Part shown: in pieces, positions 3,591 through 39,447 of the stretch
Layout of the letters: the number at the start of each line of letters is the position of its first letter
Position numbering within the stretch: position 1 is the first letter of the stretch
DNA from: Minisyncoccota bacterium
Lineage (GTDB): Bacteria > Patescibacteriota > Minisyncoccia > Phycocordibacterales > UBA2100
NCBI GenBank assembly: GCA_965267345.1
Contig: OZ253947.1
Location: forward strand, 72,662-136,661
Length of the DNA stretch: 64,000 nucleotides
Direction of reading: 5' to 3'
Made by a program: the position numbers and the translations under genes
Notes under the pieces: generated by a model
What the model was told of the DNA's origin: nothing
Database searches by the model: none
The model's input: only the letters and a program-made list of their open reading frames with translations

Positions 3591-3596
3591 AACGTG

Positions 3597-3984
3597 TGGA
3601 GGTGGGGGAGACGAATCCCCGTCCATGAGAATCTCCATATATACGTCTACGAAATCTAGTCCATTTTCTGAGTTTAAACACGATGTGTTTGAAATGGACA
3701 AAATCACATCATGTCGATCCCCATCGATTTAAAAGCAGTGGTGAGGAAACCACGTCTTCGAGTCCGAAAGTGTGACACCGCTATTTTCAATATCGGACGT
3801 CATGAGAAGCGATGGTCGCTTAGGCTACTGCGTAAGCGAAGCCGAAATCCTTTGCCTGAATTGGGCTTAGAATTCCGCGTGCAGTTTTAGATGCACCTAT
3901 TGGGTTGAGAAGTTGATACGGCAGTCTTCTCACTGCCATTTCGCATATATACCGAGCATTCACTGTCGAAACATAGTCACCCCC
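3597..3984 (-). ncRNA. ssrA: tmRNA (SsrA)
   Basis: Minus strand starts GGGGGTGACTATGTTTCGACAG and ends GGACGGGGATTCGTCTCCCCCACCTCCA. The 7 bp acceptor stem (GGGGGTG / CACCTCC) has a G3-U70 wobble, the alanine identity element. T-arm-like 3' end. Internal frame GCA AAG GAT TTC GGC TTC GCT TAC GCA GTA GCC TAA is a candidate tag (AKDFGFAYAVA). Directly adjacent to smpB. Confidence 0.8.
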
Positions 3985-36085: not shown

Positions 36086-36729
36086 ACCCAACACCGGTGA
36101 ACACACAGGCGCTGCCCACGTTCGATACACCAATTGAAGGTGGTCGTGCCGAAGTGGTGCAGCCCACGCAAGAGACGGCAGTATCGTCGTTTGACGTACC
36201 ATGGGATATTTTCACCAGCGCGTGGATTAACTTCTTTCTCGTCGCGCTGATTGTGTCGGTAGTGTTTGCGATCATTACACTGTATGCGCGCTTTCGTCTG
36301 TACCAGATACGTAGTGCGGAAGCGGAGTACTACACAAACCAGCCGCTGTCATCTGCTGCACGGAAAGTGTTGCAAATTGAAGAGGCGGCGAGTATGGCCG
36401 GCGGTGCACACGAAGCGCGGTGGCGTGATGTACTGCGCCTTGCCGATTCAGCACAGCCAAATGATTGGCGACAGGCTATTGTCGAAGCTGACATCATGCT
36501 CGAAGATGCAATAACGCAGAAAGGATATCAGGGCGAGTCGCTCGGTGAGAAAATGAAAACGGTACGTCGCAGCGAGGTGAATACAATTGATGGCGCATGG
36601 GAGGCGCACAAGATGCGCAACCGCATTGCGCACGAAGGAGCGGCAATGGAACTGTCGCAGCGTGAAGTGAAGCGCATCATTGCGCTGTTTGAACGCACGC
36701 TGCGTGAACTCGATTACATTTTCGCATAA
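36082..36729 (+). CDS. membrane-anchored protein with HEPN-like C-terminal domain (W...RNRIAHEG, Rx4-6H motif)
   Basis: One TM helix (FFLVALIVSVVFAIITL). C-terminus GAWEAHKMRNRIAHEGAAME resembles the HepT/HEPN Rx4-6H motif. Start overlaps the gatA stop (ATGA). Confidence 0.5.
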   Translation: MNPTPVNTQALPTFDTPIEGGRAEVVQPTQETAVSSFDVPWDIFTSAWINFFLVALIVSVVFAIITLYARFRLYQIRSAEAEYYTNQPLSSAARKVLQIEEAASMAGGAHEARWRDVLRLADSAQPNDWRQAIVEADIMLEDAITQKGYQGESLGEKMKTVRRSEVNTIDGAWEAHKMRNRIAHEGAAMELSQREVKRIIALFERTLRELDYIFA

Positions 36730-36767
36730 GTTTTACCCGACGAGCGCTTTATGCTATAGTGCGCCGC

Positions 36768-36839
36768 AGCGGGGTGGAGGAGTAGTAACTCGCCGGGCTC
36801 ATAACCCGGAGATCGCTGGTGCAATTCCAGCCCCCGCAA
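36768..36839 (+). tRNA. tRNA-fMet (initiator, anticodon CAU)
   Basis: AGCGGGGTGGAGG...CTCATAA...CCAGCCCCCGCAA. Three G:C pairs closing the anticodon stem; 1:72 mismatch; close to E. coli tRNA-fMet. No CCA encoded. Confidence 0.8.
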
Positions 36840-37042
36840 CAAGTACACATAACGCCACACAATTTTGTGTGGCGTTATGTGTTACTGGTGCGCGGGGAGC
36901 AAGGCACCTGCGTGCCTTGCGTCTGGAAGTGCAAGGCGGAGCCATGTCTGAACGAAGTGAAGACGGGCGAGCCCGGACAGGAGCCACTTATCCTGAGTGC
37001 ACGAAGGATTAGTGAGCTGACGTCAATTCCAGCCCCCGCAAC
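36840..37042 (+). repeat. tRNA-fMet-attached element (copy 1): hairpin, conserved core, then a 20 nt copy of the tRNA 3' end (37023-37042)
   Basis: caattccagcccccgcaaca is repeated exactly. Core ...CATGTCTGAACGAAGTGAAGACGGGCGAGCCCGGACAGGAGCCACTTATCCTGAGTGCACGAAGGATTAGTGAGCTGACG is shared with copies 2-4. Confidence 0.65.
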
Positions 37043-37083
37043 ACGTAATGTAAAACACCACGCGACCACGTGGTGTTTTACAT

Positions 37084-37160
37084 TGGTGCCGAGGGACGGG
37101 ATCGAACCGTCGACCTTAGGTTTATGAGTCCTACGCTCTAACCAACTGAGCTACCTCGGC
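37084..37160 (-). tRNA. tRNA-Met (anticodon CAU; elongator Met, or Ile2 if lysidinylated), CCA encoded
   Basis: Reverse complement reads GCCGAGGTAGCTCAGTTGGTTAGAGCGTAGGACTCATAAACCTAAGGTCGACGGTTCGATCCCGTCCCTCGGCACCA. Confidence 0.8.
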
Positions 37161-37318
37161 AATGCACGTATGCGCACAACGATACCAATTTCACGCGCTG
37201 CTTTCAATAAAAATACACTTGTGCACACCATAGTGTCGTGTGCGCAAACAGATACGCCATGAACATGTATACTTGAAGTAGGTCGAGCACATTACTCACT
37301 CCTTACGCATTTTTGTTT

Positions 37319-37528
37319 ATGGCAACACGCAAAACAGCAAAAAAGCGAACGACCGCGAAGCGCAAGCCTGCAGCACGTAAGCGCGTCGCGAAAAAGACAG
37401 CGCGCAAGACGACAGCAAAGAAGCGCACGACCGCGAAGCGCAAACCTGCAGCAAAGAAGAAAACGACTACAAAGCGCAAAGTGGCACGTAAGACGACGTC
37501 ACGCAAGAAAGCAACACGTCGTCGCTAG
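37319..37528 (+). CDS. histone H1-like / HC2-like basic repeat protein (69 aa, K/R/T/A-rich)
   Basis: MATRKTAKKRTTAKRKPAARKR... with internal tandem repeats of TTAKKRTTAKRKPAA (DNA repeat 37340-37465); followed by a terminator. Confidence 0.55.
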   Translation: MATRKTAKKRTTAKRKPAARKRVAKKTARKTTAKKRTTAKRKPAAKKKTTTKRKVARKTTSRKKATRRR

Positions 37529-37546
37529 GACGACGTGTGCTCACGA

Positions 37547-37577
37547 AAAACCCGCTGACAGAGCGGGTTTTTCGTTT
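37547..37577 (+). terminator. rho-independent terminator (aaaaacccgctgacagagcgggtttttcgttt)
   Basis: CCCGCT...AGCGGG stem plus T-run. Confidence 0.7.
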
Positions 37578-37622
37578 GAGAAAGTGGCAACTTTTAAATA
37601 TCCTGTTAGAATAGCGCCTGTT

Positions 37623-37697
37623 GCGGACGTAGCTCAACTTGGTTAGAGCACCCGCCTGTCACGCGGGAGGTTGCGGGTTCAAGTCCCGTCGTTCGCG
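37623..37697 (+). tRNA. tRNA-Asp (anticodon GUC)
   Basis: GCGGACGTAGCTCAACTTGGTTAGAGCACCCGCCTGTCACGCGGGAGGTTGCGGGTTCAAGTCCCGTCGTTCGCG. Confidence 0.9.
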
Positions 37698-37891
37698 CAT
37701 AAACTCAGTGTAGTCCCGACCCGAGAGGGTTGGGGCTTTACTGATTTACAGCGAGGTGGGACTTGAAAGACGGAGCCGGTATACAAGACAAAGCGTAGCG
37801 AAGTGCTTGTCGGCGAGTCCGGGCAGGAGCCACTTATCCTGAGTGCACGAAGGATTAGTGAGCTGACGCCACGTCCCGTCGTTCGCGCATA
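37698..37891 (+). repeat. tRNA-Asp-attached element (copy 2): terminator-like hairpin, conserved core, 19 nt copy of the tRNA 3' end (37873-37891), then a second terminator-like hairpin
   Basis: gtcccgtcgttcgcgcata is repeated exactly. The flanks (cagtgtagtcccgacccgagagggttggggctttactg vs cagttagaccccgtgcggtagcactggggttttactg) are only about 70% identical. Confidence 0.65.
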
Positions 37892-38124
37892 CAACAGTTA
37901 GACCCCGTGCGGTAGCACTGGGGTTTTACTGTTTTAGCGACAAAGTGGGGCGTTTCTCGGTGCACAAAACATGCTACTATACATGCAATGAACATCGCGG
38001 AATTTTTCAATACACTCGTTGCACTTGCCGCGAAAGCCATCACGCTCTTTTTAGAGTTTCTGCTGGCAATTTTTGCCTTTTTCATCACCCTCATCCAAGG
38101 ACTGCTTAGCTTTCTCTCGTAAGT

Positions 38125-38730
38125 ATGTCACATAGTTTTACACGTCAGCAGTGGGTGATTCTCATCTTTTCGCTTAGCTACCTGTGTGCATTCACTGCCT
38201 ACTATCTGGTGAGCGCAAACTACGAATTCCTGTGGTATGTCGCGGTGATGGTATTCTTTTTCGCGCTCCTCATCGGCACACTCCGCTCTTCGCAGTTCAC
38301 GCCGTTGATTTTATGGGGGCTCTCAGTATGGGGACTGCTCCACATGGCTGGAGGCAGCATTCCCGTGGGTGATACGGTCCTGTATGGGGTGCAGCTTATC
38401 GATATCGTCAGTGACGGCGGCGAGTTTGTCATTCTTAAGTACGACCAATTCGTGCACGCATTTGGCTTTGGTGTCACGACACTCGTTGCGTATCACTTGA
38501 TGGCGCCACGCTGGCGTGAGGGTGCATCGCACGGACTACTGCTTGCACTGTGTGTGGCAATTGGTATGGGACTCGGCGCAGTAAACGAAATTGTTGAGTT
38601 TATCGCGGTCGTCGCGATCAGTGAAACGGGCGTGGGCGGATACTTCAATACGTCACTCGACCTCGTCTTCAACGCGCTTGGAGCGCTTGGTGCTGCCGGC
38701 ATACTCGCGTACCGACACAAAGCGAGATAG
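38125..38730 (+). CDS. DUF2238-like (YjdF-like) inner membrane protein
   Basis: 201 aa, 6 TM segments, KYDQFVHAFGFG motif. A 44-codon hydrophobic mini-ORF (37988-38122) precedes it. Confidence 0.55.
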   Translation: MSHSFTRQQWVILIFSLSYLCAFTAYYLVSANYEFLWYVAVMVFFFALLIGTLRSSQFTPLILWGLSVWGLLHMAGGSIPVGDTVLYGVQLIDIVSDGGEFVILKYDQFVHAFGFGVTTLVAYHLMAPRWREGASHGLLLALCVAIGMGLGAVNEIVEFIAVVAISETGVGGYFNTSLDLVFNALGALGAAGILAYRHKAR

Positions 38731-38770
38731 TTTGCGCTCACCACCAAACATTGTAAGATACAGCGCACGT

Positions 38771-38843
38771 GCCGGGATAGCTCAGTTGGTAGAGCGCACC
38801 CATGGTAAGGGTGAGGTCACGGGTTCGAATCCCGTTCCTGGCT
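38771..38843 (+). tRNA. tRNA-Thr (anticodon GGU)
   Basis: GCCGGGATAGCTCAGTTGGTAGAGCGCACCCATGGTAAGGGTGAGGTCACGGGTTCGAATCCCGTTCCTGGCT. Confidence 0.85.
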
Positions 38844-39010
38844 CACGCAGGCGATGAGCCAAGTGAGGAGGAAAGCAGGCACACTGCTTTGCCTGCGTCG
38901 GGATGCGAAAAGCGCAGTCATGTCTGAGCATTGCGAAGACAGACGAGCTCGGGCAGGAGCCACTTAGCGCGTAGCGCTTAGTGAGCTGACGCCGAATCCC
39001 GTTCCTGGCT
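38844..39010 (+). repeat. tRNA-Thr(GGU)-attached element (copy 3): hairpin, conserved core with a variant hairpin (GCGCGTAGCGC), then a 19 nt copy of the tRNA 3' end (38992-39010), abutting the next tRNA
   Basis: cgaatcccgttcctggctc is repeated exactly. Core ...GTCATGTCTGAGCATTGCGAAGACAGACGAGCTCGGGCAGGAGCCACTTAGCGCGTAGCGCTTAGTGAGCTGACG. Confidence 0.65.
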
Positions 39011-39015
39011 CCAGC

Positions 39016-39088
39016 GCCACCGTAGCTCAGTTGGTAGAGCAATACATTCGTAACGTATAGGTCGGAGGTTCGAGTCCTCTCGGTGGCT
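39016..39088 (+). tRNA. tRNA-Thr (anticodon CGU)
   Basis: GCCACCGTAGCTCAGTTGGTAGAGCAATACATTCGTAACGTATAGGTCGGAGGTTCGAGTCCTCTCGGTGGCT. A31-C39 mismatch in the anticodon stem. Confidence 0.8.
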
Positions 39089-39090
39089 CA

Positions 39091-39447
39091 ATGAATTTTG
39101 AACGCGAACGTCAAGAGAATTCACTTGAGAAGGCACTGCGCGCGTTTTCGTTTCAACGTACCAGCAATGGTGGCATGCTCGCATATCGCGATGCTCTCCG
39201 AGACATCGGCCTCGTGCAAGCCATATTTTGGGAGGAGCTTAGTCAACGCCCAGGAGCGATGGTGACTTTTGACACCTGCCGCCACCTCGTGGGCGACAGC
39301 GCGGCAGGGCGAAGGGTTCACAACAATCTCGTCAGAACGAATATGCGCTTTTTGAGTCAGGTGGTGAAAGATATAAGCGCGGGAAAAGTCGATGTGCGCG
39401 AGGAGCCAAAGGTCGGGTATCGACTCGTGCTCACTGATGTAGAATAG
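39091..39447 (+). CDS. hypothetical protein (118 aa); ATG starts 2 nt after the tRNA-Thr 3' end
   Basis: Long ORF. The only Shine-Dalgarno-like sequence (GGTGG) lies inside the tRNA acceptor stem. No family recognised. Confidence 0.4.
   Translation: MNFERERQENSLEKALRAFSFQRTSNGGMLAYRDALRDIGLVQAIFWEELSQRPGAMVTFDTCRHLVGDSAAGRRVHNNLVRTNMRFLSQVVKDISAGKVDVREEPKVGYRLVLTDVE

Follow-up and report, generated by a model that had tools for sequence, protein, structure and literature searches.

A small structured non-coding element follows tRNA genes in Patescibacteria and repeats the 3′ end of its target

We analyzed a 64,000-nucleotide (nt) stretch of a Minisyncoccota genome (contig OZ253947.1; hereafter the window) and find that the segment at 37770–37872 is the folded core of a small non-coding element present in many copies directly after the transfer RNA (tRNA) genes of Patescibacteria. 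The segment lies 72 nt 3′ of tRNA-Asp(GTC) on the same strand and is the middle part of one copy, c2, whose full unit extends from a 5′ arm to the end of a tRNA-derived tail (37756–37889). A first-pass annotation had flagged a conserved core of about 90 nt, which is a real conserved structure and merely part of this longer unit. Read 5′ to 3′ on the tRNA-sense strand, each unit consists of a hairpin (P0 or a terminator-like hairpin), a 7–10-nt antisense arm, a three-way-junction core, and a repeat of the target that starts exactly where the complementarity of the arm starts. We tentatively interpret the unit as a non-coding, non-autonomous, base-pair-targeted multi-copy insertion element of about 135–200 nt that probably operates via RNA and spreads by capture and copy-back of a target 3′ fragment, a reading we favor while holding it to be somewhat short of probable.

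The window contains five copies of the element, each behind a tRNA gene: Met, Asp, Thr(GGT) and Ser, the last followed by two. Four copies had been described earlier, and the fourth is indeed on the minus strand after tRNA-Ser with the hairpin CATATTTTAT...ATAAAATATG; the fifth, a divergent copy in tandem with the fourth (20017–19874), was revealed by a covariance model search. This model, built from 65 copies and applied with accepted matches at E below 1e-4, identified 146 copies in 59 genomes, almost all Patescibacteria, including 43 copies without the seed pattern. The parts of c2 and the other copies in the window are as follows.

37623..37698 (+): tRNA-Asp(GTC), the host gene of c2 (ARAGORN and Rfam).
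37680–37699: sequence R, tRNA-Asp positions 56–74, repeated after the c2 core.
37706..37743 (+): hairpin between tRNA-Asp and c2 with a 17-base-pair stem and a GAGA loop (read directly).
37756..37764 (+): c2 5′ arm of P1, GGTGGGACTT, in which GGGACTT is the reverse complement of tRNA positions 57–63 (AAGTCCC).
37765..37768 (+): c2 junction J1/2, GAAA; the family consensus is GAAA ahead of the P2 G, in 73–85% of 146 copies.
37769..37819 (+): c2 P2–P3 part, opening with P2, in which G-A-C (37769–71) pairs with G-T-C (37817–19), followed by a GGA/GA internal loop.
37775–37814 (+): c2 P3 arm, with a variable tip containing the 'CGAAG' loop.
37822..37870 (+): c2 P4–P5 part, opening with P4, in which GGC (37822–24) pairs with GCC (37868–70), with an AGG/GAC internal loop.
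37828–36 with 37855–64 (+): c2 P5, AGCCACTTA paired with TTAGTGAGCT, with a bulged A and a U·U mismatch.
37837–37854 (+): c2 variable distal hairpin.
37870..37889 (+): c2 tail R′, CACGTCCCGTCGTTCGCGCA, a direct repeat of tRNA-Asp 56–74 with one A-to-C change; its first 7–8 nt are the 3′ strand of P1.
36900..37041 (+): copy c1 after initiator-type tRNA-Met (36768–36840), 105 bits, with hairpin P0 and its CUGC loop at 36900–36919, the model match at 36921–37044 and a tail equal to the tRNA 3′ end at 37024–37041.
38875..39011 (+): copy c3 after tRNA-Thr(GGT) (38771–38844), 104.5 bits, with P0 at 38875–38896, the model match at 38897–39013 and the tail at 38993–39011; tRNA-Thr(CGT) begins 4 nt on.
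19727..19868 (−): copy c4b, the distal member of the tandem pair behind tRNA-Ser(GCT) (20061–20148, −) and the fourth copy of the first-pass annotation, 41 bits, with a tail equal to the tRNA-Ser 3′ end at 19728–19747.
19874..20017 (−): copy c4a, the divergent member beside tRNA-Ser, 30.8 bits (E 5.6e-9), with a tail shortened to about 10 nt (CGAATCCCC).

A diverged second copy of the hairpin at 37706..37743 follows the c2 tail at about 37890–37935, and the same arrangement occurs at other loci. Past the c3 tail, positions 39009–39015 read GGC-T-CCA-G, a discriminator plus CCA directly ahead of tRNA-Thr(CGT); behind the genuine tRNA-Thr(GGT) stands CAC, and the CCA behind the c3 tail may be a coincidence.

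The core is a three-way junction formed by a P2–P3 arm and a P4–P5 arm and closed by helix P1. On the tRNA-sense strand, the antisense arm that forms the P1 5′ strand is followed by GAAA, P2 (G-N-C with G-N′-C), the GGA/GA loop and P3 with its variable tip, and then by a CG linker, P4 (GGY with Y′CC), the AGG/GAC loop, P5, the distal hairpin, and the tail that supplies the P1 3′ strand. The core 3′ end reads ...GCUGACNC, and conserved G residues adjoin P1. Across the family P5 pairs AGCCACUUA with UUAGUGAGCU, and its bulged A and U·U mismatch are both kept in about 94% of copies, extending to the family the earlier observation that these lower-stem irregularities are retained (of 146 copies, 138 keep the A, and 137 and 139 keep the respective U). 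The distal hairpin beyond P5 is variable and often carries tandem G·A pairs; within the window, copies 1 and 2 have TCCTGAGTGCACGAAGGA at this place, copy 3 has GCGCGTAGCGC and copy 4 has a long AT hairpin, just as first described.

Covariation provides strong evidence for this fold. Mutual information singled out the fold pairs with no prior assumption, and RNAalifold, suggested as a check by the first-pass annotation, recovered P2 independently. In 65 pattern-selected copies aligned with MAFFT, 89.6% of cells are paired compared to 73.4% in shuffled alignments, 22 of 32 pairs show double-sided changes, and the covariation score of 0.415 (shuffled, 0.126) was reached by 0 of 500 shuffles and approached by no slid partners (at most 0.10). 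The wider alignment of 146 model-aligned copies bears out the proposed covariation with a score of 0.482 compared to 0.142 after shuffling (0 of 500 as high), 88.7% of cells paired compared to 66.7%, double-sided changes at 31 of 32 pairs, and 972 double-sided-change cells where 298 are expected; the slid controls collapse. P1 shows double-sided changes at 9 of 9 pairs, so that arm and tail covary along the whole helix. In P2 the middle pair occurs as GC 54, AU 37, CG 28 and UA 4 times, the P3 pairs covary, the third pair of P4 occurs as CG 88, UA 30 and GC 14 times, and P5, which is frozen by the seed pattern, covaries in the 43 copies outside that pattern (one pair: AU 19, GC 10, CG 6).

Conservation is accordingly at the level of base pairing and not of coding, as the first-pass annotation had concluded. 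There is no open reading frame (ORF) within the unit, and reading frames across it are unconserved and carry stops; the minus-strand peptides SSLILRALRISGSCP and LTKRYALSGSCP can be reproduced and lie in different frames, with stops in the others. The sequence blocks GGCGAGYCCGGRCAGG, CAGGAGCCACTTA and TTAGTGAGCTGACG that it had reported occur at 36966/37812/38942, 36978/37824/38954 and 37009/37855/38978, respectively, more often than shuffled sequence ever matched. Their claimed invariance holds for copies 1 and 2 only: copy 3 has two changes in the first block, and in copy 4 all blocks differ, with differences that are compensatory (GGCAC.../...GTGACC). An ordinary decaying repeat, or a short coding or leader sequence without selected structure, is refuted by the covariation, and we give these explanations next to no weight.

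The P0 hairpin that precedes the arm in some copies has a conserved CUGC loop on differing stems (GCAAA-CUGC-UUUGC or GUGC-CUGC-GCAC), with examples at loci L001, L021, L047, L052 and L094 and in the window at 36900–36919 and 38875–38896; other copies have a terminator-like hairpin instead. Retention of the CUGC loop on stems of unlike sequence suggests that P0 is a recognition site of its own. We rejected pairing of this loop with a core GCAG, a nucleotide of which pairs in P4 with full covariation. By inspection, neither a kink-turn assignment for the GGA/GA and AGG/GAC loops nor a circularly permuted hammerhead fits the consensus, and GAAAG-N-C...AG-N-CCGGGC bears a likeness to conserved region I of RNase P, with pairing partners that differ.

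The second defining feature of the element is the relationship of its arm and tail to the upstream gene. In about 65 of 100 pattern matches, the 19–24 nt behind GCUGAC-N-C are the 3′ end of the upstream tRNA, covering 19 amino-acid specificities, and 78 of 146 model matches have a tRNA within 400 nt upstream together with at least 12 nt of tail identity. The distance from arm to tRNA end peaks at 44–60 nt. The tail directly repeats upstream tRNA positions 56 to about 74, with a sharp left edge and a variable right edge that gives repeats of 19 to 116 nt, and in most copies the joint of core and repeat falls between T-loop positions 55 and 56. Comparing tRNA and tail region across 67 tRNA-type copies, identity is at most 0.2 at tRNA positions 48–55 (0.00 at position 54), rises to 0.99 at position 56, stays at about 0.97 up to position 65 and at 0.84–0.94 over positions 66–74, and falls to 0.55 at position 75. 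In about 80% of all matches, the tail and the sequence upstream share a direct repeat that is 10 nt or longer. In a minority, the repeat spans 30–116 nt and extends through a terminator or into the next unit: at L010 it stops at the terminator T-run, and at L036, L094, L011, L077 and in the hairpin downstream of c2 it reaches a truncated second unit.

The arm is the reverse complement of tRNA positions 57–63/65 with T-loop residues included (CAAGT to ACTTG; CGAGT to ACTCG), and is therefore complementary to the tail and not copied from the 5′ strand of the tRNA T-stem. Its longest antisense match averages 7.1 nt where an element is present compared to 4.7 nt at element-free tRNAs, a value near that of shuffled sequence, and we rejected the arm as a native feature of tRNA terminators because element-free tRNAs have none. 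At about 10% per position, mismatches of the arm are as frequent as differences between one repeat copy and the other. The arm fits the tRNA copy better than the tail in 11–12 cases and never the reverse, from which no conclusion on stronger selection on the arm follows because arm mutations lower both matches equally. A strand complementary to the acceptor is present in about 15–18 of 82 copies, about 18 of them when a length of at least 7 nt is required, and there it fits the upstream tRNA end plus its own flank (L003, L062). A full tRNA-like cloverleaf with this strand as acceptor 5′ strand, P0 as body arm and P1 as T arm is not general, given that count, and UBA3458 carries the same trailer hairpin with no element behind it. 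Some host tRNAs 200–300 nt upstream of elements (L080, L026, L016, L093, L011) were missed by ARAGORN because they carry large insertions, which explains several apparently tRNA-less exceptions; these insertions are probably group I introns, which are frequent in Patescibacteria tRNAs and are described there for the anticodon loop (PMC13011429).

The rule that links arm, target and repeat is not tied to tRNA biology. At L084 the element lies behind a zinc-finger protein gene, with an arm GGTTTTTG that pairs with CAAAAACC inside the coding region and, after the core, a 116-nt repeat of the coding 3′ end together with its flank; a diverged ortholog is found at L079. The arms at L091 and L058 are complementary to the final bases of tRNA-Arg and the adjoining trailer. 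Copies are also present at some sites and absent from their orthologs: c3 in the window occupies a tRNA-Thr(GGT)/tRNA-Thr(CGT) site that measures only 7 nt in L099 and 22 nt in L100 (identical tRNA), and at syntenic tRNAs L064 has fewer copies than L088, or none. Tandem copies and 3′-truncated second copies occur, and a core tends to be closer to others of its own genome than to those behind the same tRNA in other genomes (41 versus 16).

A guide-like arm, a joint located where the pairing starts, and a repeat with a fixed left and a variable right edge together point to insertion by base-paired choice of site with duplication of the target 3′ segment. We infer that the element would act as RNA. 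The arm would serve as the guide that selects the insertion site by base pairing, and the core 3′ end would be joined to the target at the paired site, most likely on the transcript, in a ribozyme-like capture of a target 3′ fragment ending at the tRNA 3′ end or at the terminator. The resulting chimera would be copied back to DNA and recombine with the gene through the captured segment, leaving a gene–repeat–element–repeat arrangement in which the gene is intact, and the resident element would then be carried along behind the tRNA with its fold maintained by selection. The most novel form of this model is a protein-free mobile element programmed by base pairing, in which the junction would be a new ribozyme. 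Guided by its arm, it would attach itself to a transcript's 3′ fragment, in most cases that of a tRNA severed in the T-loop, and would be written back behind the gene; we consider this form unlikely.

Several observations weigh against guided insertion. Some copies are syntenic across species (L064/L088, L003/L056, L058/L091), and copies kept at syntenic sites indicate an element that is not highly mobile. Retargeting of an arm to a new tRNA needs several changes, the similarity of cores within a genome could arise through gene conversion instead of spread, and a repeat that ends sharply at the tRNA 3′ end is also produced by site-specific integration into tRNA genes. Pfam analysis of 20 window ORFs identified housekeeping functions only (among them GatA, LigA, RecG, FtsH, pilus genes and CTP synthase) and no reverse transcriptase, recombinase or nuclease, and the ten most recurrent neighbor families at 218 loci are likewise housekeeping (among them EF-G, GatA, CCA-adding enzyme, Hsp20, PilM/N and RluA-type synthase). 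Self-cleaving and splicing ribozyme families gave no Rfam match, even at E up to 10. The single-sequence folding energy of c2 is ordinary (z = −0.8), although its minimum-energy fold still yields P1, P4 and P5; support for the structure comes from covariation and not from this energy. At many loci a canonical terminator stands between tRNA and element and would limit transcription of the element. Finally, G·U makes up just about 3% of pairs, some two times the frequency of A·C, and terminal loops are mostly of the 3-nt C(GNA)G, GCGAAGC type (72 of 139 and 68 of 122). Loops of this type are better known from stable DNA hairpins.

An alternative is that the element is a host-serving tRNA-trailer RNA, co-transcribed with the tRNA and acting in cis or in trans in tRNA 3′ processing, stability, folding control or operon punctuation. 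In the window, only tRNA-Met and tRNA-Asp are preceded by promoter-like sites, which makes co-transcription of the element plausible and also favors the insertion reading, and orientation is fixed with the narrow 44–60 nt spacing from the tRNA end; the terminators that often lie ahead of the element speak against a trailer RNA. The tail is about 90% identical right up to the tRNA end, and the tRNA-like combination of P1 and tail may recruit tRNA-processing enzymes, with copies arising by local duplication; against this, the strand needed to complete the acceptor is found in only about 15–18 of 82 copies, where its match is to the upstream tRNA and the flank of that tRNA, and older and tandem copies have tails that are decayed or cut short. 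In favor of a trailer role, copies lie within clusters of tRNA genes and immediately ahead of a following tRNA (c3), are retained in synteny across species with a structure under purifying selection, and occupy about 0.5–1% of a streamlined genome (5 copies in 64 kb). Yet orthologous tRNAs do without the element, the same architecture stands behind a protein gene whose coding 3′ end is repeated, and the match of arm and tail to each new host gene is left unexplained. We regard a trailer function as rather unlikely.

The strand on which the structure resides bears on whether it forms in RNA or DNA. The conserved purine-rich loops and tandem G·A pairs are present on the tRNA-sense strand only, and G·U exceeds A·C by 138 to 73 overall and by 42 to 16 in P2–P5, which makes a symmetric double-stranded cruciform unlikely; of the two possibilities raised by the first-pass annotation, a functional RNA or a DNA cruciform, a structured nucleic acid stands and the cruciform loses ground. 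Given the rarity of G·U and the C(GNA)G loops, the sense strand may instead fold as single-stranded DNA. Such folding is central to a further explanation, in which the unit is a DNA recombination module, that is, a miniature integrative element with a replacement tRNA 3′ end that is moved in trans by a site-specific recombinase reading the single-stranded fold, comparable to integron attC or the folded CTX phage attP, with P1 mimicking the target duplex. Strand-specific structure (c1–c3 are on the G-rich strand), the dominance of 3-nt loops, a low use of G·U, and terminators between tRNA and element all agree with a DNA module, though G·U is still above A·C and P1, read directly, has no symmetric arms of a tyrosine-recombinase core site. 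The repeat spans the T-loop to the tRNA 3′ end and stops there, like the att cores of tRNA-integrating elements, but repeats that include local non-tRNA flank (L010, L084) are unexpected if a replacement end is imported. More than 19 different tRNA targets and a protein gene would demand a recombinase that reads structure and not sequence, and no integrase lies in or near any copy. Other integration scars at tRNA loci, namely the L075 islet and the solo L064 repeat described below, are in line with recombination of this kind; on balance we judge a DNA module an unlikely explanation.

The overall layout, in which inverted repeats at the ends enclose one short arm and one long hairpin of variable sequence, also resembles a retron-like or other template RNA, in which P1 would correspond to a1/a2, P2–P3 to msr and the P4–P5 hairpin to msd, with a reverse transcriptase from another locus making single-stranded DNA. 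DNA-type loops at the tips of the long hairpins and conserved G residues beside P1 fit such a template. Dozens of copies per genome tied to tRNA ends are unlike retrons, however, as is a tail derived from the target; no reverse transcriptase is adjacent at any of the 218 loci, and no Rfam retron or reverse-transcriptase-associated motif matched, so that this explanation appears highly improbable.

Several loci show other events at the same kinds of site. In UBA3458 the tRNA-Thr site occupied by c3 in the window holds a 580-nt insert (L101 3252–3831) with a 153-amino-acid ORF, a weak HNH_3 match and a CPNCD motif, and the first 18 nt past the tRNA are common to the window. At L075 (5421–7611), a 196-nt repeat that is 99% identical and consists of the last bases of tRNA-Asp, a hairpin, a complete element and a tail flanks a 1.8-kb islet of three genes, encoding an unknown protein, a YdjM-like membrane protein and a SET-domain protein; L086 has a related disruption. 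L064 (2330–2500, −) carries a 34-nt repeat of the 3′ third of tRNA-Leu(TAG) (about positions 40–76) located 31 nt past the gene with nothing recognizable between, and L095 has a similar partial copy of a tRNA-Thr 3′ end; such solo tRNA copies may have been left behind when other elements integrated or were excised. Some elements contain a small palindromic insert at the P4/P5 junction GGGCAG|G, one with ends CCCACACCATAC...GTATGGTGTGGG and another forming the hairpin CCTGCCTGCCGGTAGGCAGG (L043 6100–6250; L065 4620–4740; L085 1870–2060, −; L031 2400–2500; L018, L072 and L060), and further inserts occur within the P0 CUGC loop (the downstream copy at L084, and L065). These look like a second family of miniature elements or sites of tolerated expansion.

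The family is broad within Patescibacteria. An exact-pattern scan covering one genome per species returned 98 loci, all in Patescibacteria metagenome-assembled genomes or small contigs binned elsewhere, except two chance matches (Shewanella and a Bacillota contig), and the seed pattern matches at least 120 further metagenome contigs, a scan in which no small circular contigs were evident. Viral contigs gave 0 matches to the exact pattern; a looser pattern gave 120 matches at chance level only, and the covariance model matched 0 of the 80 loci checked. Rfam 15 (4227 models) has no match to the element at gathering threshold, the window scan returning only transfer-messenger RNA (tmRNA) and tRNAs, and a scan of 36700–39150 at E up to 10 gave nothing on the element; a literature search found no description of such an element. 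Other conserved cores occupy the same frame of hairpin, antisense arm, core and tRNA tail (L055 3400–3690, L041, L039, L030 and L006, as well as the tRNAs at L009 (Pro), L014 (Val), L020 (Leu), L067 (Arg) and L077 (Val)), sometimes in tandem with the present type, and several share a 5′ module GAA-N-CG...GAG. The shared arm-and-tail frame points to a wider superfamily.

The window lies within a 644-kb contig whose nearest relatives are Kaiserbacteria and UBA3458 at about 70% protein identity. With a tmRNA gene at 3594–3984 (−; Rfam, 80 bits) and genes for GatA, LigA, RecG, FtsH and type IV pili, the window has the content of normal chromosomal DNA from a small Patescibacteria genome. Just upstream of tRNA-Asp, 37313–37528 (+) holds a 71-amino-acid ORF very rich in Lys, Arg, Thr and Ala (AKKKTTTKRK...) with no Pfam match, and the product may be a histone-like or nucleic-acid-binding protein.

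Patescibacteria genomes are among the smallest bacterial ones, yet five units are present in 64 kb. If the arm selects its site by pairing, the element would be a new and very small guided insertion element, of interest comparable to guide-RNA transposons and bridge RNAs and with no encoded protein; if it is a ribozyme, it would represent a previously unknown RNA-mediated duplication and insertion of gene ends in bacteria, and re-programming of its guide would be conceivable in principle. Were it instead to serve the tRNA, it would point to a new step in how tRNAs mature or are controlled in these bacteria, which have few of the standard RNA-processing enzymes. On either reading these data define a large, well-supported new family of structured nucleic acid with a testable fold, explain puzzling partial tRNA 3′ duplicates, and allow better annotation of tRNA loci in thousands of metagenome-assembled genomes.

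The element matches no described RNA or mobile-element family, and every known family compared with it fails on at least one defining feature. Like tRNA-targeting integrative elements, it lies on the 3′ side of an intact tRNA and is bounded by a direct repeat of the tRNA 3′ part from the T-loop region to the 3′ end, but the present unit is about 150–200 nt with no integrase, follows more than 19 tRNAs and a protein gene, and has a three-way junction, an antisense arm and some repeats that run into local flank. Rickettsia palindromic elements, Correia elements and REP/BIME are similarly short, non-coding, multi-copy, conserved in structure and without transposase, and are co-transcribed with neighbors, as is plausible here; their ends are terminal inverted repeats, or they are simple palindromes, and the target duplications they make are short and of fixed length, whereas the present element is branched, has no terminal inverted repeats, and combines a target-derived closing helix with repeats of 19–116 nt. 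A miniature inverted-repeat or insertion-sequence-derived element is likewise a poor match, the ends being arm...GCTGACNC and not inverted repeats, with repeat length ranging from 19 to 116 nt. With integron attC and CTX attP the element shares one-strand structure that prevails over sequence, retained extrahelical bases and mismatches, and tolerance of variable tips; it differs in its lack of integron integrase context and of R/L boxes, in having a three-way junction and not a single hairpin, and in its target-copying helix.

Plant mitochondrial t-elements, mascRNA and viral tRNA-like structures also have a 3′ end that imitates the 3′ strands of T-stem and acceptor, but in the present element a core of about 100 nt takes the place of the T-loop, the acceptor 5′ strand is usually absent, and the copy is an exact one of the neighboring tRNA. 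Read directly, the junction strands GAAA / CG / none do not fit a hammerhead core, and self-cleaving ribozymes (hammerhead, twister, pistol, hatchet, HDV-like and hairpin) gave no Rfam match at E up to 10. The omega RNA of TnpB/IscB similarly joins a structured scaffold to about 20 nt of flanking target at its 3′ end; in contrast, no TnpB/IscB ORF lies near any copy, IS200/IS605 ends are absent, Rfam HEARO/IS605 motifs are unmatched, the arm of the element itself pairs with the first 7–9 nt of what would be the guide, and the flank repeats upstream sequence. Group I introns differ in size, the present core of about 100–140 nt being too small for the P3–P9 catalytic core and without an Intron_gpI match, and in context, since the complete tRNA upstream places the element outside its host gene and the tRNA needs no splicing to function. 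They nevertheless share with it a covarying fold without protein and are frequent in Patescibacteria tRNA genes (PMC13011429), and the guide pairing of group I introns (internal guide sequence, P1/P10) and their reverse splicing offer a parallel, with a 5′-side segment that pairs with the flanking target exactly at its joint with the 3′ end of the element.

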